Shown piece after piece: positions 3,372 to 56,082 of a DNA stretch of 64,000 bases. Both the position numbers and the translations under genes were made by a program. The number at the start of each line of letters is the position of its first letter. Positions within the stretch are counted from its first letter, which is position 1. Location of the stretch: the NCBI GenBank assembly GCA_964578745.1, contig CAZODZ010000002.1:17123-81122 (forward strand), written 5' to 3'. Source of the stretch: an uncultured Dehalococcoidales bacterium (GTDB lineage Bacteria; Chloroflexota; Dehalococcoidia; GIF9; AB-539-J10). Under the pieces are notes generated by a model. The model saw only the letters and a program-made list of their open reading frames with translations. It made no database searches and was not told where the DNA came from.

Positions 3372-3445
3372 TGGGCCATTGTGGACTCGAACCACAGACC
3401 CCGGTCTTATCAGGACCGTGCTCTAGCCGACTGAGCTAATGGCCC
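3372..3445 (-). tRNA. tRNA-Ile (anticodon GAT)
   Basis: The reverse complement folds as GGGCCATTAGCTCAGTCGGCTAGAGCACGGTCCTGATAAGACCGGGGTCTGTGGTTCGAGTCCACAATGGCCCA. It has a 7-bp acceptor stem, a GGTTCGAGTCC T-arm and the anticodon loop CTGATAA. CCA is not encoded. Confidence 0.85.
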
Positions 3446-5377: not shown

Positions 5378-6763
5378 CTAACCAAGTATGCCCAGGAACA
5401 CACCACCTGCAATAGCTGCACCGATGGCTCCTGCCACATTGGGGCCCATGGCGTGCATCAGGAGAAAGTTCCGCGGATTCTCTTTCTGGCCGAGCACCTG
5501 CACGACACGCGCGGACATCGGCACCGCCGAGACACCTGCTGCCCCAATCATTGGGTTGATCTTCTCTTTCGAGAAGAGGTTCATGAACTTGGCTAGCAAT
5601 ACGCCTGCCCCGGCTGCACTTGCGAACGCGACGACGCCCAGCACAAGGACAAGCAGCGTACGGGGTTGAAGGAAGTTTTCCGCAGGCATGCTGGCGCCGA
5701 TGGCAAGTGTCAGGAATATCGTGAGAATGTCGACCAGTCCATCCTGTGCCGTATTGCTCAGGCGTTCAACGACGCCTGATTCGCGGAATAGATTGCCCAC
5801 CATGAACAGCCCTATCAACGGTGCTGATGAAGGGACGAAGAGGATCACGACAATCGTAGTAATAATCGGGAACAATATCTTCTCTTGTTTGCTCACGGGT
5901 CGCAGCTGCGGCTTCATGTAAATCTTGCGCTCTTCCTTCGTCGTGAGCAGCCGGATGACGGGTGGTAGGATAACGGGTACTAGGGCCATGTATGAATAGC
6001 ACGCCACGGCGGTCGCGCCGATGATTTGTGGCGCGAGAACGGAGGTAACGTATATCGTGGTGGGGCCTTCCGCTCCGCCTATGATCCCGATCGAGGCGGC
6101 CTCTGGCATGGTGAACCCGCTGAGCAGCGCCAGGAAGAAGGCGAAATACACACCGAACTGGGCTGCAGCGCCGAGAAGGAGCGTCTTTGGGTTTGCCAGC
6201 ATCGGCCCGAAATCAGTAAGGGCGCCGAGACAGAGGAACATGAGTGGAGGCAGAATCTGCCACATTACACCGTATTGAAAGATCCTCGCCAGAATGCCGA
6301 CAGGGGATGTCGGGTGCTGGCTCTGGTCTGTTTGTTCTTGAGTGAGGATTCGTGCGATCGTCTGGCCTTTTTCGACTTCGTCACCCTCATTGACCATCCA
6401 TTTATCAACCCGGCCGAACACTGGTGCCGGGATGGTGCTCGTGGTGGTGCCTGATTCGATTGTGACAAGCGTGGTGCCTTTGCTGAAGCGCGTGACCTCT
6501 TCAGTGTCGATGCTTACCACAGTCCCAGCCACAGGAGACTCCAGGTTGAGGGCGTAGTCCATCGTTCCACCGAGTGGCAGGTTTACGAGTATCATGCCGA
6601 ACCCGATTGGCAAGAGAAGCAGAGGTTCCATCTTCTTGGAGATGGCGAGGTAGATGAGGAGTCCGCCGATGGCTAGCATGACAGCATTTCCCCAGAAGAA
6701 ATGCTGCAAGCCACTTTCTAGTAGACCAAACACGTCAAGTCCTCCGTGAATGAGGTGTGCCAC
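5378..6763 (-). CDS. Na+-transporting decarboxylase beta subunit (OadB/MmdB/GcdB family) with an inserted biotinyl-like domain
   Basis: It carries the conserved family motifs TDFGPMLANP, LLMHAMGPNVAG and GVSAVPMSARV. The cytoplasmic loop carries an extra beta-barrel-like segment of about 60 aa. Confidence 0.85.
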   Translation of the reverse strand: MAHLIHGGLDVFGLLESGLQHFFWGNAVMLAIGGLLIYLAISKKMEPLLLLPIGFGMILVNLPLGGTMDYALNLESPVAGTVVSIDTEEVTRFSKGTTLVTIESGTTTSTIPAPVFGRVDKWMVNEGDEVEKGQTIARILTQEQTDQSQHPTSPVGILARIFQYGVMWQILPPLMFLCLGALTDFGPMLANPKTLLLGAAAQFGVYFAFFLALLSGFTMPEAASIGIIGGAEGPTTIYVTSVLAPQIIGATAVACYSYMALVPVILPPVIRLLTTKEERKIYMKPQLRPVSKQEKILFPIITTIVVILFVPSSAPLIGLFMVGNLFRESGVVERLSNTAQDGLVDILTIFLTLAIGASMPAENFLQPRTLLVLVLGVVAFASAAGAGVLLAKFMNLFSKEKINPMIGAAGVSAVPMSARVVQVLGQKENPRNFLLMHAMGPNVAGAIGAAIAGGVFLGILG

Positions 6764-6797
6764 AGTGTGGCATTGTCATGAGCAGCCACACGGATGC

Positions 6798-6938
6798 TCA
6801 GTCTTTGCTCTTCTCTCTTGTGGTCTGGGTCGCGATGCGCGAGCCCACAGTGATGAGTGCCGCAAGGATGACCAGCAGAAGGAACACCATTCCGAAGCCG
6901 CCAGCGGCAATCTGGATCGCGAAATCCCAATCTATCAT
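6798..6938 (-). CDS. OadG-like small membrane subunit of the decarboxylase (46 aa, not in the ORF track)
   Basis: I translated it manually as MIDWDFAIQIAAGGFGMVFLLLVILAALITVGSRIATQTTREKSKD. It has a single TM helix and an OadG-like N-terminus. It sits 34 nt upstream of the beta subunit on the same strand. Confidence 0.6.
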   Translation of the reverse strand: MIDWDFAIQIAAGGFGMVFLLLVILAALITVGSRIATQTTREKSKD

Positions 6939-7040
6939 GTTTCAGTACCTAGTGGGTCGGCGGAAGGCTGTAACTCAGATCGTCTCAGCCTGACAGCCCC
7001 CCGCTTTGTGGCCTAATAGTGTACCATGCCGCCCCTGTCG

Positions 7041-7568
7041 CTACGAGACATCTTCCGGGCTTCTCACGCTGGACAGCGTTCTGGCGACCGTAGAGTGTGT
7101 GAACCCGCGGTTGTACAGATAGCGCGAGAGGCGTCGTACGAACGTCTCATGTTGCAGTCCTGTCATCGAGGCCGCCTTGTGTCGGGCCAGTTCAAGCGCG
7201 ACTACGTCATCGTCTATCCCTTCCGTCAAGCGGTCAGCCAGCTCCGGTGCAATGCCCTTATCCCTGAGTTCCTTGCGGATGAGCCGTCTACTTCTAGGTC
7301 TGAAGGCCTGGCGGCTTTCACTCCACGACCTGGCAAACGCGTCATCGTCAAGAAGGCCCTGCTGCAGAAGTCTGCTGATGGCTTCTTCGACTACCCTCGT
7401 CGGGAATCCTGCTGCCTGTAGGCTCCTCCTGATTTCGGCAGTACTGCGCATGCGGTGCTGCAGCAGCCTGTAGGAACGTTCCATCGCTTGTTCTATTCCG
7501 TGTCGTGGGGCCATTAGACAAGATGGTGTGCGATTAGTCTTGCGGCTGGGTCGACTGGATGTCTTCAC
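7041..7568 (-). CDS. recX: recombination regulator RecX
   Basis: The RecX-like helical repeats lie immediately downstream of recA. The start is ambiguous. The ATG at 7568 overlaps the recA 3' end by 35 nt, and the ATG at 7514 lies 20 nt after the recA stop. Confidence 0.7.
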
Positions 7569-8595
7569 CGCCTTCTACCGGCTTGAGCGCCGCAAGTGAT
7601 TGGCGTATCTCCCGCTCGATCGTTGAGGCTATTTCCGGGTTCTGTCTTAGGAACTCACGCGCGTTCTCGCGCCCCTGACCCAGCCTGTGCTCTCCATAGG
7701 TAAGGAATGCCCCGGCTTTCTTGATGATGCCTGCGCTCACCCCGAGGTCGAGCAGGTCCCCTTCCTTACTGATGCCATGATAGAACAGAATGTCGAATTC
7801 TGCTGTGCGGAAAGGTGGTGCGACCTTGTTCTTGACTACGCGTGCCTTAACACGCATGCCGACAATTTCCGTCCCTCGTTTCAGCGACTCTCCCCTCCGG
7901 AGGTCGATGCGGACAGAGCTGTAGAATTTCAGCGCGCGGCCCCCTGGCGTAACCTCCGGATTGCCGAAGATGATGCCGACCTTCTCCCTCAGCTGATTGA
8001 TGAAGACAACTGCGGTCCGGGACCGGCTGATGGAGGCGGTTAGCTTCCTCAAAGCCTGTGACATGAGTCTGGCTTGGAGGCCGACATGCGAGTCACCCAT
8101 GTCGCCCTCTATCTCGGCCTTCGGCACCAGCGCGGCAACGCTGTCTACCACAATAACATCGATGCCGGAACTGCGCACAAGGTGCTCCGCTATTTCGAGT
8201 GCCTGCTCTCCCGTGTCTGGCTGGGAGATGTAAAGGTCGTCGATATTGACGCCGCAGGCCCTGGCGTACTGCGGATCAAGGGCATGCTCAGCATCTATGT
8301 AGAGGGCCCGTCCGCCAGCCTTCTGTGCCTCAGCAATGATGTGCTGTGCGAGGGTTGTCTTGCCGGATGATTCCGAGCCGAATATTTCCGTAACCCTGCC
8401 GCGGGGAATGCCCCCGACGCCGAGAGCCATGTCAAGCGAAAGCGAACCGGTAGGGACAACATCTACATGCTGTGTGGCTACCTGCCCGAGCCGCATCAAT
8501 GAGCCGCGCCCAAACTGCCTTTCGATCTGTTCAATGGCGAGTTCGACTGCCTTTTCCTTATCAGTGGTCATCGTGTCCTGCCTTTCACTGCCCAC
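7534..8595 (-). CDS. recA: recombinase RecA
   Basis: It has the Walker A motif [11 protein letters not shown] and full-length RecA conservation. The start may be the internal M at 8572. Confidence 0.95.
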
Positions 8596-27342: not shown

Positions 27343-28515
27343 ATGAAGCTGCTCGTGATAGGACTTGGACAATGCGGCGGCCGTATCGCCGACCGTTTTG
27401 CACGTTTGAACAAGAGGGGCCATGCCCTCCGTGGCATGGACACGCTGGCCGGCGTGTTCGCGGTCAATACGGATATCACCGACCTCAGTGGTCTTCGGAC
27501 CATCAAGCCTGACTATAAGCACCGCATTCTTATCGGTGCTCAGCGTACCAATGGCCACGGTGTGGGCAAGATCAGCGAACTTGGAGCGGAGATTGCCAAC
27601 GAAGACGTAGATAAGATCATCGACGCCATCCGGACGGCTGAGGGTTTTTACGAGACCGACGCATTTCTGCTATGCGCGGGTGCCGCAGGCGGCACAGGCT
27701 CGGGGTCGATAGGGGTTCTTACTAAACACCTGAAGGAACGTTATATTGGCAAGCCTGTCTATAACGTCATCGTCCTGCCATTCCGACAGGAAGAGACGAC
27801 TGAAACAAGGACTATCTACAACACGGCAACCTGTCTGAAGTCGACGTATCTGGTGGCGGATGCCGTATTCCTCATCGATAACCAGCGCTATGTGAAGAAG
27901 GATGCGGCTGCGGAGACTAACCTCAACACTATCAATGCCCGGGTTGTGGAGCCGTTTTATAATCTCCTTTGTGCGGGGGAAGAGACTAACAGGAGGTACG
28001 TCGGCTCCAAGACGCTCGACGCTGGCGACATAATCCAGACACTGGCCGGGTGGACCGTTATCGGCGGCGGTATGTCACGACTCCAGAGGCGCCTGCCGTT
28101 CTGCGGGCCCAAACGAGACTTCCGCGAGAAGATGTCAGACACAAGCCGTGCTGTCCATGCCATGGATCAGGCCATCAGTGAGTTGTCTATGACAATCGAC
28201 CCCACAGACGCGGGCAGAGCGATGTATCTCTTGACCGCACCGTCACGGGAAATGAGCATGGATGTCATCAAACAGTTGGGTGATAACCTCAGGAACCTTG
28301 CACCCAATGCCTTGATTCGCAGTGGGGACTATCCCCGGGAGACTAGGCAGGTGGACGTTACGGTGGTCCTGTCCGAAATCGGTAGCGTCCGCAAGGTCAC
28401 GGACTACTTCACCAAGGCCATCGATCTCATATCGGTCATGAAGGCCAAGAAAGGGCTGGGTTATCAGACCCGGCGACTGGAAGAGGCGTTCGACGAGATT
28501 CCGGTGTTGCTATAG
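27343..28515 (+). CDS. tubulin/FtsZ-superfamily GTPase, CetZ-like paralog (not the canonical FtsZ)
   Basis: It has a GLGQCGGRIADRF Gly-rich N-terminus, the T4 motif GGTGSGS, NGHGVG, ELGAEIANEDVD and a T7-like DAGD loop. The overall pattern resembles archaeal CetZ more than FtsZ. The canonical ftsZ is at 52325..53458. Confidence 0.75.
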   Translation: MKLLVIGLGQCGGRIADRFARLNKRGHALRGMDTLAGVFAVNTDITDLSGLRTIKPDYKHRILIGAQRTNGHGVGKISELGAEIANEDVDKIIDAIRTAEGFYETDAFLLCAGAAGGTGSGSIGVLTKHLKERYIGKPVYNVIVLPFRQEETTETRTIYNTATCLKSTYLVADAVFLIDNQRYVKKDAAAETNLNTINARVVEPFYNLLCAGEETNRRYVGSKTLDAGDIIQTLAGWTVIGGGMSRLQRRLPFCGPKRDFREKMSDTSRAVHAMDQAISELSMTIDPTDAGRAMYLLTAPSREMSMDVIKQLGDNLRNLAPNALIRSGDYPRETRQVDVTVVLSEIGSVRKVTDYFTKAIDLISVMKAKKGLGYQTRRLEEAFDEIPVLL

Positions 28516-28538
28516 TAGCAGGGGAAATTGTCTATGAG

Positions 28539-28580
28539 CTACAGTCCCTGTCAGTTCTGACAGGGACTGTAGCATTTTTC
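28539..28580 (+). terminator. Rho-independent terminator (possibly bidirectional)
   Basis: A perfect 15-bp inverted repeat (ctacagtccctgtca / tgacagggactgtag) with a 3-nt loop is followed by cattttt. It lies between convergent genes. Confidence 0.7.
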
Positions 28581-28601: not shown

Positions 28602-29135
28602 CTAGTGACGAGCCTTTGTAAATATGGCCCAGGTAGTGGCAATTGCTTCCGCGTGCTGTTTCCGGGCGGTTCTCTCGGCCTCGTCCCGTTCCTTCAGCGC
28701 CTGTGCGACGGCGTCATCATAGCTCTTCTTCGATTCGGCCGCTGCCGCCTCATACGACTGCCTTGCCTGGGCGATTGCTTCGTCAAATGCCTGTCGTGCC
28801 TTGTAGAGGCTCTCTTCCATCGCCTTTCTTGCGTGAGCAAGGCTCGAATCATAGGACTTGCGCGCCTGGGCTATGATGTCCTGGCAATTCTTGCGTGCCT
28901 GCTCGACCGCGCTGCTGTAGTCCTTCTCAGCCTTCTGTTCCTGTTCCTTGTAGGCGCGCTCAAGTTCACGCTCGGCTTCAACGTATGCCAAATATGCTGC
29001 CGCGGCGCGCTGCTGCGTCTCGTCCAGAAGTCCTAGGGTCGGCTGCTGTGATGTTGTGGTCTGTTTCTCTGCTTCTTCAGCTGGAGTCTCGTTCTCCTGT
29101 TGCTGCTTCACTGCCGCTCCTTCTGAGGTGGTCAT
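28602..29135 (-). CDS. hendecad-repeat coiled-coil protein (177 aa)
   Basis: It has about six tandem 11-residue repeats (AQARKSYDSSL / AHARKAMEESL / YKARQAFDEAI ...). An AAGGAGGG RBS precedes the ATG at 29135. Confidence 0.6.
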   Translation of the reverse strand: MTTSEGAAVKQQQENETPAEEAEKQTTTSQQPTLGLLDETQQRAAAAYLAYVEAERELERAYKEQEQKAEKDYSSAVEQARKNCQDIIAQARKSYDSSLAHARKAMEESLYKARQAFDEAIAQARQSYEAAAAESKKSYDDAVAQALKERDEAERTARKQHAEAIATTWAIFTKARH

Positions 29136-29224
29136 CTATGCCCTCCTTCTTGCCGTCTTAGTCATCAAAATGCGCTGGGTACCTGTCGCCCCCAGTTGTC
29201 GCTCCGTGAGCGCTTCCCAGACGA

Positions 29225-30787
29225 CTACTCCTCTTCCTCGTCTCTATCGAACGGGCGTTCTCGTTCGCTCGCGTACATCCTGGACAAGAACTGGAGACGG
29301 GCATTGATATCCCGGGCTGGTTCCCGGGGTTGCATTCGCGGCGGAGCAGGTTCTTCCGGTTCGAATCGGCTCATCGCCTCGTCCAACTCCCTTGCTGGCT
29401 GACGTCTCTCAGCGACGTCATATCCGGCTTTCTCGGCGCTGGCGACGGCATCCTCGAACACACGCATGGATGCACGGGCCGCCTTACGGGCCGCCCTGGC
29501 CGTTTCTTCGGACTTCTTGATGGCTTCCTGCAGCATTCGTGAGGATGCGACTACAGCCTCCTTTGCAGATGCCACCGAATCAGCAAGTGCCTCACGTATG
29601 ATGCGTTTGGATTCTTCTGTGGCCTCGCGTGCCTCGGCGCTCGTCTGCTCAGATTGGCGTATAGCTTCAGCTGCCAGACGCTTGGCCTCTTCAGCTGCCT
29701 CTGACGTCACCCGTGATATCTCCTCGGCCCGTGCCGCTGAACGTTGTGCCACTGCAAGGGCTTCCTCTGCAATTCTGGTGGACGAGGTGCTGACTTCCTC
29801 ACTCCTTCTCACGGCTTCGCGCGCCGCGCGTTCTGCTTCCTCTGCCTTACCGATTGCTTCCTGTGAGGCTCGCCCTGCAGACTCGACAGCTTCACGGCTT
29901 GCGCGGACTGATGCTTCAATACGGGCGACTGCTTCTTGGGAGGCGCGTATCTGGCGCTCGGCTTCACGCTGGCTCAGCTTACCCGCCTCTTCGGCACGGC
30001 GTAGAGCTGCCTCGAAAGCATGCTGGGATTGCTCAGCGGATGCGTTGGCATTTGCGATAGCCTCCTCGGCCCGTGCCCGTGCTTCCTCAAATGCCGCGGT
30101 AGAGAGCGCGGCGGAGTCACTTGCTGCTTGGAACACGCGCTCCGCCCGTGATACTGCCTTCTGCGAGGCCTTCTCAGCATCCTTCGCGACCTTCTCCGAA
30201 TTGCGTGCCACTCGCTCGGCCGCAGCCTGGGCCTCACGAGAGACTCTCACCGATTCCTCGGCTGCTCGTGCCGCGCGCGCTCCGTATTCCTCCGCTTGGG
30301 CGGTCGCCTGTTGTGCTGCACGGCGTGCCTCGTCCACTTTCTGTTGTGCCGTCTGGGCTGTCTTCTCGACCCGCGAAAGTGATTTCTGGGACGAGGAGAC
30401 CGTCTCTTCCATCGTAGCGATTGCCTGGTTCACCAGTTGCTCCAGGCGCGCAATTGCCTGCTGGAACGAACGGGCTTGTTGCTCAGCTGTTTCAGTTGAC
30501 GCCTTCAGAGCCCGCTCTGCCGCTGCAATGGCTTGCTCGGCACGTTCAATTGTGCCGCGGGAAACTCGCGAAGAGTCATCCGCAACCTCGGTTGCCCTGC
30601 GCACTGCGTCCTCCGCCAGTTTCCGTGCCTCATCTGCGGATTCCCGGGCCTCGCGAGCTATCGATTCGATCCTGCTCATGGCTTGTCCTGATGCCCGGCG
30701 CGACTGCTCCGCGGCTTGCTTGGCTGCCAGGCTCATTTGCTCCGCTCGAGCTACTGCTTCCTCAAAAGAAGGCGAATCGTTATCCAT
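29225..30787 (-). CDS. large hendecad-repeat coiled-coil protein (about 520 aa)
   Basis: Tens of 11-residue A/E/R/S-rich repeats (RASQEAVARIE / ASVRASREAVE ...) are followed by an acidic tail. An AGGAAA RBS precedes the ATG at 30787. The listed N-extension to 31003 overlaps the upstream nitrilase gene. Confidence 0.6.
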   Translation of the reverse strand: MDNDSPSFEEAVARAEQMSLAAKQAAEQSRRASGQAMSRIESIAREARESADEARKLAEDAVRRATEVADDSSRVSRGTIERAEQAIAAAERALKASTETAEQQARSFQQAIARLEQLVNQAIATMEETVSSSQKSLSRVEKTAQTAQQKVDEARRAAQQATAQAEEYGARAARAAEESVRVSREAQAAAERVARNSEKVAKDAEKASQKAVSRAERVFQAASDSAALSTAAFEEARARAEEAIANANASAEQSQHAFEAALRRAEEAGKLSQREAERQIRASQEAVARIEASVRASREAVESAGRASQEAIGKAEEAERAAREAVRRSEEVSTSSTRIAEEALAVAQRSAARAEEISRVTSEAAEEAKRLAAEAIRQSEQTSAEAREATEESKRIIREALADSVASAKEAVVASSRMLQEAIKKSEETARAARKAARASMRVFEDAVASAEKAGYDVAERRQPARELDEAMSRFEPEEPAPPRMQPREPARDINARLQFLSRMYASERERPFDRDEEEE

Positions 30788-30875
30788 GCATGTATTTCCT
30801 GGATGCGAAGTGTAAAGCACACTACCCCTGCGCCTCGGCAGGGTCGCTCTATTGTAGTCGCCGATCTCGTCTATT

Positions 30876-31700
30876 TCAACGAATGGGCGGGAGCTTTCGA
30901 TTATGCAGGACAGGCAGTTGTTCCCTTGCCTGAGCCAGCAGGCTGAAATCCAGGTTCGCAAGCACCACGGCGTTCTCTTCGCCGGAGGCACGTGCGAGTA
31001 CACGCCCCCATGGGTCTACCAGCATGCTGTTCCCGTATGTTGGGATACCGCCTGCACCAATACCCGATTGCCCAGGCGCGACGACAAAACTCAAGTTCTC
31101 AATGGCGCGTGCGCGTACGAGGACCTCCCAGTGCGCGGCACCGGTAAGCTCCGTGAAAGAAGAGGGCACGAATATCAGATCGACTCCCGAGGCCGACATC
31201 TCGCGGTAGAGCTCGGGAAAACGGAGGTCATAGCAGATGCTGAGCCCCATCCTGATGCCTGCTGCGTATGCCAGTACAACTTCAGAGCCCGCTGAGTACT
31301 TCATAGATTCGCTGATCGAGCGATCGTCAATCGTGATGTCGAAGAGGTGTATCTTGCGGTATGCGGCAATGATATCGCCGTCGGTGCCGATGAGAACGGA
31401 CGTATTGTATGGCCTCCCCCCTGGATTGCGCTCATGAACGCTTCCCGCGAGTATCCATGCGTTTCTCTCGTAGGCCAGTCTCTGAAGAGGAGAAAGGGCT
31501 GAACCCGGGAGTGGTTCAGCAATAGCGTCAAGCTCTATGTCGTCGCCGCGGTAGTCAAACGTCTCTGGCAGAGCGACGAGTTGGGCGCCTTCATCAAGGG
31601 CGCGCTCAACCAGTCGTGCTGCCCTGCGGATATTGTCCGACTTGTCCGGTCCGCTGGCCATTTGCACGATTGCAGTCCTCAATCGGTTCGGTTCAGTCAT
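30876..31700 (-). CDS. carbon-nitrogen hydrolase (nitrilase/omega-amidase superfamily)
   Basis: It has the catalytic triad context: E in LVALPE, K in YRKIHLF and C in GLSICYD. Confidence 0.8.
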   Translation of the reverse strand: MTEPNRLRTAIVQMASGPDKSDNIRRAARLVERALDEGAQLVALPETFDYRGDDIELDAIAEPLPGSALSPLQRLAYERNAWILAGSVHERNPGGRPYNTSVLIGTDGDIIAAYRKIHLFDITIDDRSISESMKYSAGSEVVLAYAAGIRMGLSICYDLRFPELYREMSASGVDLIFVPSSFTELTGAAHWEVLVRARAIENLSFVVAPGQSGIGAGGIPTYGNSMLVDPWGRVLARASGEENAVVLANLDFSLLAQAREQLPVLHNRKLPPIR

Positions 31701-52324: not shown

Positions 52325-53458
52325 CTATTGCCAGGAAAGCTTGGAGGGCTCAGGCGTAACGTCCGCTCGACCCTTCAATGCCTGCGTGAGCTGACCACCT
52401 GCACCGTGTCGCTGGCCACGGCGGAGGAACGATGGGACATCAAGTGTGTCGCCGCCACCCTTCATCAGTCTGCGCAGTTCTTCAGTATCGGGAGATCCCT
52501 TGCCATATTGACTTGTGAATCCGGTTGCTATGACGGTGATCTTGATCTCGGCATCCATCTTCGGATCGAACACGACGCCGAAGATGATGTTCGCCCGTGG
52601 ATCAACGGCCTCGCTGATGACACTTGCCGCCTCGTTACATTCGAACAACGTCAGGCTTGGGCCGCCCGTGATGTTGAAAAGCACGCCCTGGGCGCCTGCG
52701 ACCTGTGCATCAAGCAGCGGGCTTGCGAGTGCTGCCTTGGCCGCCTCTGCAGCGCGATTCTGGCCGCTGCCGCGCCCCACGGACATCCATGCAGGGCCGG
52801 CATCTTTCATGACCGACTTGATATCGGCGAAGTCAAGATTGATGAGACCGGGCACTGTTACCACCTCAGAAATGGCCTGCACACCGAGCAGCAGGGCGTC
52901 GTCTGCGAGCCTGAAGGCGGAATCGATTGTTGTCTTGGCATCACACAACTGAAGCAGCCGATCGTTTGGGATGATGATGAGCGTATCCACCTTCTCGGTC
53001 AGGTTGAGAATGCCTTCCTCAGCCACTTCCGATCTGTGGCCTCCCTCAAACTTGAACGGCTTGGTTACCACGCCGATAGTGAGCGCACCGGACTCCTTTG
53101 CCGTCTCTGCAACCACCGGGATGCCACCAGTGCCTGTTCCTCCACCCATGCCAGCTGCCACAAATACCATGTCAGCACCCTCGACGATTTCCTGTATTAG
53201 CTGCTTGCTCTCCTCGGCAGCCTTGTGTCCAACGCGGTGATCTCCGCCTGCTCCGAGACCGCGTGTCAGTTTCTCGCCGAGCTGGATCCGTGTGGGTGCC
53301 TCGGCAAGAGCGAGGGCTTGGGCGTCCGTATTCATGGCGATGAATTCTACGCCGCGGATGCCCTCGCGGATCATGCGGTTGATTGCATTTGTTCCACCGC
53401 CACCGATGCCGATAGCCTTGATCTTGGCAGGGGCGGGTGTGTATGTTGTCTTAGCCAT
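52325..53458 (-). CDS. ftsZ: cell division protein FtsZ
   Basis: It has [17 protein letters not shown] and the GGGTGTG T4 loop, with full FtsZ conservation. An AGGAGGA RBS precedes the start. Confidence 0.95.
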
Positions 53459-53497
53459 CTGTTCCTCCTAGTCTTCTCAACGTTTCAGCGCACAACA

Positions 53498-54718
53498 CTA
53501 TCCGCGGAAGAGCTTGCGCAGCAGTCGGGTGATGCTACCGAACATTCCGGCACGTTTGTCCTGCCATGCGGATGGTTCGCGGTTGCGGGCCTGCCAGAGG
53601 ATGAGCCCGAGTGTCGTTGCGTATGCGGAATCGCGTAGAATGTCGGTGATACCGTAGACCCCGCTGCCAAGCGGAGCGCCCTTGCGCACGGGCATTTTCA
53701 GTTGCTCCCTGCCCAAGTCCACGAGGCCTCCGAGGTTCGCGGTACCACCTGTGAGTACGAGTCCACAGGGGGCGAGACGCTGGTAGTCAGTTGTTGGAAG
53801 CTCGAGAAGGATGAGTTCGAACAGCTCCTCCATCCTGGAGCGCACGATGTCACATAGTTCACGGTACGACGCGGCATGCCCGTTCTCGATGCCTGTCAGT
53901 TCGGTCTCCCTGCCGAACTCCTTGTTCGGTGTCGCATCACCGTATGTCTTTTTCATGCGCTCTGCGACATGGAACGGGAGGCCGAGCCCGATGGCGATAT
54001 CGCTTGTTATCTGATAGCCGGCCACTGGGATGATCGCTGTGTGATAGATATCCCCGTCCTTGAATACGGCTATATCTGTTGTGCCGCCGCCGAGGTCTGC
54101 CATGATGATGCCGCTTTCGCGTTCCTGGGCGGTGAGCACAGCCTCGCCGCTTGCCAGAGGTTCAAGTACGAGGTCGTCAACCTGCACGCCGATACTCCGG
54201 ATGACTTTGACGAGATTCTGAACAGACGAGACCGATGCCGTGATGATGTGGGTCTCCACATCAAGTCGCGTGCCATGCATGCCAACGGGTTGCTTGACAC
54301 GCTCTTCCCCGTCGAGCGTGTAATAGCGTGGGATGGCGTGCAGCAGCTTCTTCCCCTCAGGTACAGCTACATTTCTGGATGCAGCGAGGACCCGCTGCAG
54401 GTCCTCCGAACGTACCAGCCGGTCATTCCTGGGAATGGCCACAACGCCTTTGTTGTTGATGCTGCTGATGTGCCGCCCAGTGACACCAACGAAGACCGAA
54501 TCGACCCGCGTGCCGCTGATCTTCTGTGCCTCCTGGATAGACGCGGCGATGGCCTCTTTAGCCTCGTCCATGTTGACGACGATACCCTTGTGTAGTCCAT
54601 GGCTGGGCACAACGCCAACGCCGAGAACCTCGATGTCATCCTGGTTTCTGACGTTCGCCACGATGGTCGCTATCTTGGTGGTACCCACATCAATGGCGGA
54701 GACAATTCCTTTGGCCAT
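53498..54718 (-). CDS. ftsA: cell division protein FtsA
   Basis: It has the actin-fold motifs (SAIDVGTTKIAT, DLGGGTTD). An AAGGAGGTG RBS precedes the ATG at 54718. Confidence 0.9.
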   Translation of the reverse strand: MAKGIVSAIDVGTTKIATIVANVRNQDDIEVLGVGVVPSHGLHKGIVVNMDEAKEAIAASIQEAQKISGTRVDSVFVGVTGRHISSINNKGVVAIPRNDRLVRSEDLQRVLAASRNVAVPEGKKLLHAIPRYYTLDGEERVKQPVGMHGTRLDVETHIITASVSSVQNLVKVIRSIGVQVDDLVLEPLASGEAVLTAQERESGIIMADLGGGTTDIAVFKDGDIYHTAIIPVAGYQITSDIAIGLGLPFHVAERMKKTYGDATPNKEFGRETELTGIENGHAASYRELCDIVRSRMEELFELILLELPTTDYQRLAPCGLVLTGGTANLGGLVDLGREQLKMPVRKGAPLGSGVYGITDILRDSAYATTLGLILWQARNREPSAWQDKRAGMFGSITRLLRKLFRG

Positions 54719-54763
54719 ATTCACCTCCTTAGATTGCTCAGGACGCTGAGCCACAGAACGGCT

Positions 54764-55660
54764 CTATGCAAGACGCTCAGCGACTCTGAGCCGCGCACTG
54801 CGGCTGCGTGGGTTGGAGCGGGTCTCCAACGAAGTAGGTCGTATGACCTTCCTTGAGACGAGCGAGAAGACGTGGCGTGCTGCCTCCCTGCGCATGAACT
54901 GCTTCACAATGCGGTCCTCGAGAGAGTGGTAGCTTATGACTACTACACGACCCCCCTCACGCAGGAGTTCTGCTGTCTGGTCCAATGCCAGCCTGAGGTT
55001 CTCCAGCTCCCTGTTCACCGCAATTCGAAGCGCCATGAATGTGCGGGTGGCAGGATGGATCCTGCCGCGTCTGCCGCCGTGGACCTGCTGCACAATGTGC
55101 ACAAGTCGTAATGTGGACAGGATCGGCCTGTTCTGGACGATCCTGTGCGCAATTTGGCGGGAGTAACGTTCTTCTCCGTACTCCCACAATATGCGAGCGA
55201 TTTCCTGCTCGCTGCAATTGTTGACAATGTCTGCTGCTGACGTGCCCTGCGCTGAATCGAAGCGCATGTCAAGGGGCGCTTCATGCTGAAAGCTGAAGCC
55301 CCGCTCGGCTGTGTTCAGCTGCATGGATGAGACGCCGAGATCCATCAGGATCCCAGCATTCCGGACAAATCCATGTGACTCGCAGATGCTCTTGAGCTCA
55401 GAGAAGTTGCCGCGGGCGAGTGTTACCCGAGGGCCGAATGATGACAGGTTCTCTCGTGCCAGTTCTATCGCAGAGGGGTCCGCATCAATGCCCAGGAGCT
55501 GGCCGTCAGGCCCACTTCTCTCCAGAATGGCACGTGCATGTCCTCCTGCCCCCACTGTACAATCCACGTATAACTCCCCCGGTTGCGGTTGCAACGCTTC
55601 CATGACCTCAGTCACCATCACGGGGATGTGTGCCATTGATGCGATGTCTCGGATGCTCAA
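54764..55660 (-). CDS. rsmH: 16S rRNA (cytosine1402-N4)-methyltransferase
   Basis: It has MraW signatures (HIPVMVTEV, YVDCTVGAGGH). Confidence 0.9.
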   Translation of the reverse strand: MSIRDIASMAHIPVMVTEVMEALQPQPGELYVDCTVGAGGHARAILERSGPDGQLLGIDADPSAIELARENLSSFGPRVTLARGNFSELKSICESHGFVRNAGILMDLGVSSMQLNTAERGFSFQHEAPLDMRFDSAQGTSAADIVNNCSEQEIARILWEYGEERYSRQIAHRIVQNRPILSTLRLVHIVQQVHGGRRGRIHPATRTFMALRIAVNRELENLRLALDQTAELLREGGRVVVISYHSLEDRIVKQFMRREAARHVFSLVSRKVIRPTSLETRSNPRSRSARLRVAERLA

Positions 55661-56082
55661 CTACCTCCCAGACTCTCAAGAATCTGTTCAGCCTGTTCTT
55701 CCGACGACTGCTTCTCCTGCTTCCAGAGTTCTTCGTTCCAGAGTTCAACGGACTGGTTGACGCCGACCACAACCACCGTTTCACCGATTTCGGCGTGCAG
55801 ACGCAATGGCATGGGCAGGCCTATGCGCCCCTGCTTGTCAAACGATGTGGAGAATGCGCTGCCAAATATGGCACGGTTTAGCTTGCGCTGGCTCGCGGAG
55901 GTCAGTGCCTTAGAAGACAGCTCGTCCGCGATGCGCTTCCACTCCGAGAGGGGGTAGACGCGGATGCATTTCTCAGTGCCTTTTGTGAGCACGATTGTGT
56001 CCCGCATATCACGGCGGAACTTGGGTGGTAGGGGCACTCGTCCCTTGTCATCCAGCTTGTATACGTACTCACCAAAAAACAT
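55657..56082 (-). CDS. mraZ: transcriptional regulator MraZ
   Basis: It has the duplicated MraZ domain (YVYKLDDKGRVPLP ...). It is the first gene of the division cluster. Confidence 0.9.
   Translation of the reverse strand: MFFGEYVYKLDDKGRVPLPPKFRRDMRDTIVLTKGTEKCIRVYPLSEWKRIADELSSKALTSASQRKLNRAIFGSAFSTSFDKQGRIGLPMPLRLHAEIGETVVVVGVNQSVELWNEELWKQEKQSSEEQAEQILESLGGS

Follow-up and report, generated by a model that had tools for sequence, protein, structure and literature searches.

A conserved gene trio in one Dehalococcoidia clade: two rod-like repeat proteins and a CetZ-like tubulin homologue as a probable cytoskeletal module

The locus described here lies in a 64,000-nt stretch of DNA from a member of the Dehalococcoidia (phylum Chloroflexota)—hereafter the window, in whose coordinates all positions are given. 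At its centre are two tandem genes, which we term S and L, encoding acidic coiled-coil proteins built from short repeats, together with a gene for a CetZ-like member of the tubulin superfamily. The open reading frames (ORFs) under discussion, with the isoelectric points (pI) of their products, are the following:

27343..28515, plus strand: gene for a CetZ-like tubulin-superfamily GTPase; 390 amino acids, basic (pI 8.8), C-terminus ...EEAFDEIPVLL
28602..29135, minus strand: gene S; 177 amino acids, acidic (pI 5.3), hendecad coiled-coil protein
29225..30787, minus strand: gene L; 520 amino acids, acidic (pI 5.3), Ala/Glu/Arg/Ser-rich coiled-coil protein of 25-residue repeats
29466..30815, plus strand: spurious antisense ORF of 449 amino acids that arises from GCN/GAR/CGN-rich codons; no gene

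S and L are co-directional, and both converge on the CetZ-like gene (L->S-> <-CetZ-like), the product of which is opposite in charge to theirs. A preliminary description of this DNA had reported two tandem genes convergent with a tubulin-like gene, and both ORFs were indeed found where it had placed them on the minus strand. The start of L is the ATG at 30787 (MDNDSPSFEE), in agreement with the N-termini of its orthologues; a longer version of the ORF, beginning at a GTG and reaching 31003, was rejected, as it overlaps a nitrilase gene and the orthologues back the ATG.

A total of 78 genome loci, all of them Dehalococcoidia or Chloroflexota metagenome-assembled genomes, were recovered via the CetZ-like protein, and L orthologues were collected from the fetched loci with phmmer and hmmsearch. 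Word-indexed homologue searches had returned 8000 low-complexity candidates for full-length L and 3 candidates for a chimera of its N- and C-termini, none of which scored in either case. At 36 of the 78 loci, where the CetZ-like proteins share 54–95% identity, S and L both lie immediately downstream in convergent orientation in 33; at the remaining three, the contig ends just past S (one locus), only L is found (L033) or only S is found (L037, where the ORFs were read). Approached from the S side, the metagenome loci show a convergent CetZ-like gene in all 33 cases with room for one, and L upstream of S in 34 of 35. The preliminary description had regarded the repeat proteins and the tubulin-like gene as one module and had proposed a co-occurrence test of that idea, which the three counts (33/36, 33/33 and 34/35) bear out. 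The 42 other loci hold paralogous CetZ-like genes (48–58% identity) in heterogeneous neighbourhoods, and 14 of these loci belong to genomes in which the module is present too; no S- or L-like neighbours were present there, and a search of these neighbourhoods for Ala/Glu/Arg-rich periodic ORFs found none. Moreover, the yjeF and nitrilase genes that flank the trio in the window persist only in the closest clade, with histone-deacetylase-family, SecDF, RmuC and other genes taking their place elsewhere. The conserved unit is the trio of L, S and the CetZ-like gene, independent of its flanks and specific to one CetZ-like orthologue group.

Some loci deserve separate mention. Tandem pairs of CetZ-like genes occur at L039 (3623..6193), L041 (6001..8470), L043 (6001..8551) and L052 (4751..7176), and in the pairs of L039 and L041 the downstream copy alone abuts S and L. 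Fourteen genomes combine a copy linked to the module with one or more paralogues outside it. In addition, a 4600-bp contig from a JGI metagenome (Ga0136651_10012827, locus L084) encodes an S protein 100% identical to that of the window, along with a CetZ-like protein and part of L, and probably stems from the same population as the window.

Both proteins were analysed for internal periodicity by scoring BLOSUM self-similarity at each offset against 200 shuffles. Protein S has a period of 11 residues, with z = 9.1, 7.0, 4.5, 6.7 and 4.9 at offsets 11, 22, 33, 44 and 55, respectively, and three segments follow its N-terminal stretch:

28938..29033, minus strand: S head motif LLDETQQRAAAAYxAYxEAxRxLExAYKxQE, residues 35-66; invariant in the alignment of S orthologues (alignment A1)
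28641..28937, minus strand: S hendecad array, residues 67-165; about nine units, consensus A-Q-A-R-K-S-Y-D-E-A-I
28605..28640, minus strand: S C-terminal motif (E)xTWxxFTKAR[KRH], residues 166-177; conserved among orthologues

Each unit of the array has apolar residues at positions 1/3, 7 and 10/11, and the earlier reading of S as a protein made of 11-residue repeats was upheld by the period. The same holds across species: of 38 S orthologues, 30 have their top self-similarity offset at 11 and the remaining 8 at 22. Hendecad copy number is variable among these proteins (118, 129, 140 or about 175 amino acids in length), and the gaps in alignment A1 measure exactly 11 or 44 residues. The ends are fixed, with L37, T40-A45, A47, Y48, A50, Y51, A54, L58, E59, A61-K63, Q65 and E66 invariant in the head, and T168, W169, F172, K174 and R176 in the C-terminal motif. 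An AlphaFold2 model based on a 25-sequence alignment predicts residues 1-34 as disordered and residues 36-176 as a single helix, with a predicted local distance difference test (pLDDT) score above 90. The family is small—25 clusters in total among 5.8e9 proteins.

Protein L follows a different rule. The period that dominates here is 25 residues long (z = 12.7 at offset 25 and 9.3 at offset 50), with weaker sub-peaks at offsets 7, 11, 14, 18 and 32, of which those at 7, 11, 14 and 18 follow from a 7+7+11 substructure of the 25-mer. L had been described as consisting of tens of 11-residue repeats; this assignment does not stand, and the example units given for it (RASQEAVARIE / ASVRASREAVE) are fragments of the 25-mer. 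The protein is divided as follows:

29438..30787, minus strand: L repeat array, residues 1-450; 18 in-register 25-residue units (7+7+11)
29258..29317, minus strand: L C-terminal helix DIxxRLxFLxxMYAxxK, residues 491-510; 3' of a Pro-rich linker, conserved
29228..29257, minus strand: L acidic tail RPFDRDEEEE, residues 511-520; present as an acidic tail in nearly all orthologues

When residues 1-450 are written in rows of 25, the 18 copies stand in perfect register without a single indel, and apolar residues fall at positions 1, 4/5, 7/8, 11/12, 15, 18/19 and 22 of the unit. The resulting seam, formed by 7 positions per 25 residues in a heptad-heptad-hendecad order (3.57 residues per turn), is mostly alanine, in a protein composed of 24% Ala, 16% Glu, 13% Arg and 10% Ser. 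Conservation is highest in the first of the 18 units (PSFEEAVARAEQMSLAA). Among the orthologues (495–727 amino acids), the top offset is 25 in 34 of 37 and 50 in the other 3, and their lengths differ by blocks of 25, 50, 11, 22 and 14 residues. Beyond the array, R497, L498, L501 and Y505 of the C-terminal helix are invariant and I494, F500 and M504 nearly so, and the acidic end already recognized in this periodic protein was confirmed as DRDEEEE. A hydrophobic-moment scan singled out neither the C-terminal helix of L nor any segment resembling a membrane-targeting one.

The alignment of database fragments of L (A2) was too ragged for structure prediction, so the fold was predicted from the sequence of L alone, at the cost of confidence in the result. 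The AlphaFold2 model obtained in this manner places helices at residues 8-69, 76-268, 270-453, 459-473 and 491-510 with a mean pLDDT of 78, the last of these helices being predicted at low pLDDT. A solenoid with one helix per repeat was excluded on this model, which is all-helical and predicts no turn per repeat. An exhaustive phmmer search of 1.84e9 representatives gave 18 matches to L, most of which are fragments, and did not connect it with any broad family. No relationship between S and L was detectable by profile-profile comparison (probability 0.9%). The two proteins are unrelated to each other, lineage-specific and very rare.

One locus departs from the conserved ends of both proteins. 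At L001/L014 (contig_23487, MFD02416.bin.2.249), S occupies L001 8001..8417 (138 amino acids, tail ...RHDRCPHAHGVRRERDGGKEGLR) and L occupies 6313..7905 (tail ...AASRRQAGYSFPPAVPCQDV...), and each has lost its conserved C-terminal motif; the losses look like frameshifts, caused by assembly error or by pseudogenisation.

The manner in which the arrays vary is informative in its own right. Indel lengths in S and L correspond to whole seam turns—3, 4, 6, 7 or 14—and no others are tolerated than those that keep the helical phase, which is the signature of continuous rod-like non-heptad coiled coils. Tandem Repeats Finder detected no repeat at the DNA level, indicating that the repeats of both proteins are old, and a literature search for coiled coils with a '25-residue repeat' found none.

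Sequence scanning and reading also brought out a set of putative expression signals around the three genes:

30851..30879, minus strand: promoter-like TTGAAA-17-TACAAT for L-S, from a sequence scan; within the 3' end of the nitrilase gene
29142..29147, minus strand: Shine-Dalgarno sequence AGGAGG of S, read from the sequence; 6 nt upstream of the start codon
27308..27336, plus strand: promoter-like TTGACA-17-TAGAAT of the CetZ-like gene; ends 6 nt before the ATG
28538..28573, no strand assigned: 16-bp perfect hairpin (9 G-C pairs) with a T-run after it on the plus strand; between the convergent stop codons

Hexamers of the form TTGAAA-N17-TA(C/A)AAT are conserved about 55–70 nt upstream of L, whether or not a nitrilase gene is located there. 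Co-transcription of the repeat genes with the nitrilase gene had been considered probable in the preliminary description; with a conserved promoter of L's own it becomes unnecessary, and the nitrilase gene is present in the closest relatives only. In 32 of 37 distinct upstream regions of CetZ-like orthologues, the sigma-70-like promoter sequence TTGAC[AG]-N16-18-TAnAAT ends 6–8 nt before the start codon, a spacing that suggests a leaderless mRNA. In the distant CetZ-like orthologues of L037-L039, the spacing between promoter and start is 27–35 nt, and a purine-rich stretch is present as well. The hairpin would be a terminator for the CetZ-like gene, possibly a bidirectional one. Separately, a clade with 70–79% identity (L021-L030) has a conserved element (…ACTTTGCGGAGCCAAGCGAGGTTTTCC…) in the 5' untranslated region of about 60 nt that separates the L promoter from the start codon; this element may be a regulatory RNA structure, and the clade of the window itself shows no obvious counterpart.

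With sequences as repetitive as these, the possibility must be considered that S and L are low-complexity or mis-called ORFs without specific function, the real gene being perhaps that on the plus strand at 29466..30815. The extreme composition of L, the existence of the antisense ORF and the fact that the best matches of L in the PDB are de novo designed bundles could all be read in this manner. Codon-position statistics cannot tell the two frames apart, as L and the antisense ORF share wobble positions and the third-codon-position test is thereby uninformative; conservation of stop codons was used instead. The sense frame of L is open over 495–727 amino acids in 37 of 37 distinct orthologues and can be aligned down to 30% identity, and the antisense frame is interrupted to about 100–340 amino acids in most of them—in keeping with the earlier view of this ORF as spurious. 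Likewise, non-repeat motifs at the N- and C-terminal ends are conserved, the register is exact across species, and a strong Shine-Dalgarno sequence precedes S, as a conserved promoter precedes L. We give the artefact explanation hardly any credence.

Searches against known families and structures yielded little. No Pfam or NCBIfam model matched S or L above threshold, and 25 S orthologues likewise gave no match above cut-off; the sub-threshold hits among the latter were to Perilipin (E=0.025, one orthologue) and PspA (E=0.03, two orthologues). BORCS6 appeared in 5 of 20 L orthologues, in every case below cut-off. In a profile search of the PDB, S had no match and L matched mainly de novo designed helical proteins—which reads as a reflection of composition, not of homology—and a methyl-accepting chemotaxis protein (MCP) of Thermotoga (E=0.02). 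When the L model was compared with the PDB using Foldseek, the top matches were generic long hairpins (the cytoplasmic hairpins of chemoreceptors, Rad50 and MukB), and the sole match of S was stathmin in a tubulin complex, which is not significant (E=6.7). The hairpin matches and the Thermotoga protein would fit L being a diverged MCP, an SMC/Rad50 coiled-coil arm or a DNA partition component of the TubZRC type. However, the template modelling (TM) scores of the Foldseek matches do not exceed 0.30 and their E-values are marginal, as is generic for long hairpins; Pfam and NCBIfam report no MCPsignal, SMC or helix-turn-helix domain; transmembrane, head and hinge domains are absent; and L is repeat over residues 1-450. 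The surroundings, moreover, are chromosomal housekeeping genes, not those of a plasmid or phage, and an origin of L in any of these systems appears extremely improbable.

The third member of the trio is far easier to place. The CetZ-like protein matches the Pfam models Tubulin (PF00091; 4.8e-32, 112 bits) and CetZ_C (PF21011; 2.8e-14, 53 bits), both above cut-off, and the solved structures closest to it are those of Haloferax CetZ1 (4b46; 3e-40) and CetZ2 (4b45), and 3zid. The alignment with 4b46 covers residues 1-360, including the GGTGSG and AGE motifs. Judged by its domains—a Tubulin/FtsZ GTPase domain followed by a CetZ-type C-terminal domain—the neighbour gene is a member of the CetZ family. 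It shares both domains with the archaeal CetZ proteins, from which it differs in being bacterial, in being basic (pI 8.8) and in ending with an FtsZ-like D-[IV]-P-x-L-L peptide. The exact protein is present in GenBank as HHE41091.1 under the label 'cell division protein FtsZ', a name given in other public records as well, and 'tubulin-like protein CetZ' is used only in some JGI entries. The FtsZ label is probably a mis-annotation, given that the window holds a bona fide FtsZ in a separate cluster:

52325..56082, minus strand: mraZ-rsmH-ftsA-ftsZ cluster, encoding a canonical FtsZ (Tubulin + FtsZ_C), FtsA, RsmH and MraZ

The presence of canonical FtsZ and FtsA elsewhere in the window makes the CetZ-like protein an additional and probably non-division tubulin homologue. 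Between rsmH and ftsA in the window there are no mur, ftsW, ftsI or ftsQ genes, and this reduced division cluster fits wall-less Dehalococcoidia. The window's FtsZ has a canonical C-terminal peptide (LDVPSFL), beyond which the protein runs on for about 30 residues as an extra tail. All CetZ-like paralogues of the Dehalococcoidia, with or without S and L, end in D-[IVL]-P-x-[LF]-[LF], with such C-termini as FDEIPVLL, KDIPSLL, GRELPLL and KDIPTVF (window 28486..28515; loci L006-L083). The C-terminal peptide of FtsZ docks FtsA, ZipA or SepF. The resemblance between the two tails makes a shared tail-binding partner such as FtsA conceivable, and the CetZ-like proteins may share an FtsZ-type tail receptor. 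Elsewhere in the window, a single tRNA gene (3372..3445, minus strand) is the sole Rfam match at the gathering threshold.

Drawing these lines together, we consider it probable, if by no means certain, that S, L and the CetZ-like protein form a lineage-specific three-gene cytoskeletal module of one Dehalococcoidia clade, in which S and L are all-α rods with seams of 11/3 and 25/7 periodicity, respectively. We infer direct binding of S and L to the CetZ-like protein, and likewise the oligomeric state of the rods and a cellular role in shape or envelope organisation. In such a module, S would be a dimeric or higher straight coiled-coil spacer of about 12–21 nm, depending on the species, with its invariant ends serving as functional sites and its hendecad array setting the distance between them while holding both to one face of the helix. 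L would be a longer rod, measuring about 67 nm in extended form and roughly half of that when folded back on itself, that presents 18 equivalent surfaces and is joined by a flexible linker to a docking helix and the acidic tail. The acidic rods could then act on filaments of the CetZ-like protein, which is unusually basic, by binding, bundling, spacing or anchoring them, and these filaments would serve cell-shape or envelope organisation and not division, a role proposed on account of the separate FtsZ and FtsA. The concept has precedents: ZapB, EzrA and TubY are coiled-coil proteins that bundle, anchor or regulate FtsZ/TubZ filaments. The likeness lies only in the concept of coiled-coil proteins encoded with, or working on, a tubulin-superfamily filament; none of the three has Pfam or NCBIfam homology to S or L, and the putative partner here belongs to the CetZ family, not to FtsZ or TubZ. 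We know of no S- or L-like partner described for archaeal CetZ. A search of the literature turned up neither this module nor the S and L families, and published work does record coiled-coil genes of unknown function adjoining archaeal tubulin-like genes as a frequent and recurring theme (Santana-Molina et al., PMC9871819).

Several observations weigh against the module as proposed. L is missing from L005/L124 and from L037, and S from L033, indicating that neither partner is strictly indispensable; the genes are convergent and hence do not form one transcript. The model of L derives from a single sequence, with a predicted TM score of 0.40 and the other four models at pLDDT 56–70, and the fold-back that it predicts at G269 lacks conservation, with G or P at that position in only 7 of 20 orthologues, so that the topology of L is not fixed by the model. 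In each 25-mer, only about 2–3 of the 7 seam positions hold large hydrophobic residues; on this basis a stable two-stranded coiled coil cannot be taken for granted, and the helices could bind a surface instead. Finally, Phasin_2 (PF09361) weakly matches 3 of 20 L orthologues. These last two points lead to a different explanation, under which S and L would be amphipathic coats, akin to phasins, LEA proteins, apolipoproteins or perilipins, on a lipid, polymer-granule or membrane surface at which the CetZ-like protein also acts. Ala/Glu-rich amphipathic helices, weakly hydrophobic Ala-rich faces and an 11-residue period in S are shared with these families, and the Perilipin and PspA hits among S orthologues lean in the same direction. 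The best Phasin_2 score (L038, 31.8 bits against a cut-off of 24.9) includes no single passing domain, however, and hence is a sum of repeat matches; that of L027 (22.7 bits) falls below the cut-off. The window's own L gives no match to Phasin_2 at E<=1, nor was any match of that standing to the other coat families found for the window proteins, with LEA_4, apolipoprotein and perilipin all absent from their Pfam scan. Further, the apolar face consists mainly of alanine, a residue ill suited to insertion into lipid; S and L are both strongly acidic; and the neighbourhood contains no polyhydroxyalkanoate or lipid genes. Indels that keep coiled-coil phase, including those of 14 and 25 residues, would not be required of an 11-mer surface binder, and such indels, together with the conserved terminal motifs, speak for a rod with specific ends. 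The kinship with these families suggested in the preliminary description thus finds no homology behind it, and we regard the surface-coat explanation as improbable.

A second alternative retains the rods and dispenses with the binding, in that S and/or L would self-assemble into an intermediate-filament-like scaffold such as Scy, FilP or crescentin form, with the CetZ-like protein serving the same process, for instance shape or polarity, without direct contact. Scy and FilP of Streptomyces are long bacterial rods containing hendecads, with an alanine-rich seam typical of hendecad dimers and a repeat number that expands and contracts in evolution (PMC9858780). The 18 equivalent units of L could drive staggered self-assembly, and L-S and the CetZ-like gene have separate promoters on opposite strands. 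On the other hand, an N-terminal DivIVA-like motif marks the Scy/FilP/DivIVA-like proteins (PMC9858780), and neither S nor L has such a head domain: Pfam DivIVA is not reported for either at E<=1, and NCBIfam DivIVA_Wag31 reaches 16.4 of the required 260 bits on S, in a match that covers the rod and not the head. Of the likeness to Scy/FilP drawn previously, the rod geometry, the non-heptad period and the alanine-rich seams hold, and the homology and the DivIVA-like motif do not. S and L differ from Scy and FilP, in addition, in the 25-residue unit of L (7+7+11), in their phylum (Chloroflexota) and in the linkage of their genes to a tubulin-family gene, which the Scy and FilP genes lack. That linkage is confined to one CetZ-like orthologue group and outlasts a full turnover of the flanks, a pattern more typical of products that interact physically. 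A scaffold independent of CetZ binding strikes us as unlikely, if less so than the surface coats.

Within the proposed module, a more specific arrangement can be envisaged, in which L is a periodic side-binding 'ruler' or stabiliser and S a length-tunable strut that ties the CetZ-like filament to L or to the membrane through its two invariant ends. In a curved or helical filament, one subunit after another would then meet an identical acidic/basic surface on the 18 in-phase units of L. By analogy alone, tropomyosin, nebulin and stathmin are likewise long helices with many equivalent repeats, each of which could face one filament subunit. The subunit repeat in protofilaments of the tubulin/FtsZ family is roughly 4.0–4.4 nm. 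The computed span of the 25-residue unit is about 3.7 nm, and one repeat per subunit therefore does not fit; this mismatch, and a match of S to stathmin that is not significant, set S and L apart from such proteins. We put the ruler forward as a long shot. If it were true, this would be the first repeat-matched system resembling microtubule-associated proteins for a prokaryotic tubulin homologue, and a case of a wall-less bacterium using an archaeal-type shape cytoskeleton.

The three-gene module proposed here bears on a wider question. CetZ proteins control cell shape in archaea, and to our knowledge no partner proteins are known for them. As dedicated, co-inherited rods encoded beside a bacterial CetZ-like gene, S and L are the first candidate partners for a CetZ-family cytoskeleton. 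The module is invisible in current annotation, in which the tubulin homologue is labelled FtsZ and the S and L families have no model. From a structural perspective, the 25/7 periodicity of L, with 18 units in register and only phase-preserving indels, provides an unusually clean natural case of a non-heptad coiled coil. For the organism itself, the division and cell wall (dcw) cluster is cut down to mraZ-rsmH-ftsA-ftsZ, with no cell-wall synthesis genes in between—a setting in which an internal cytoskeleton could set the shape of the cell.

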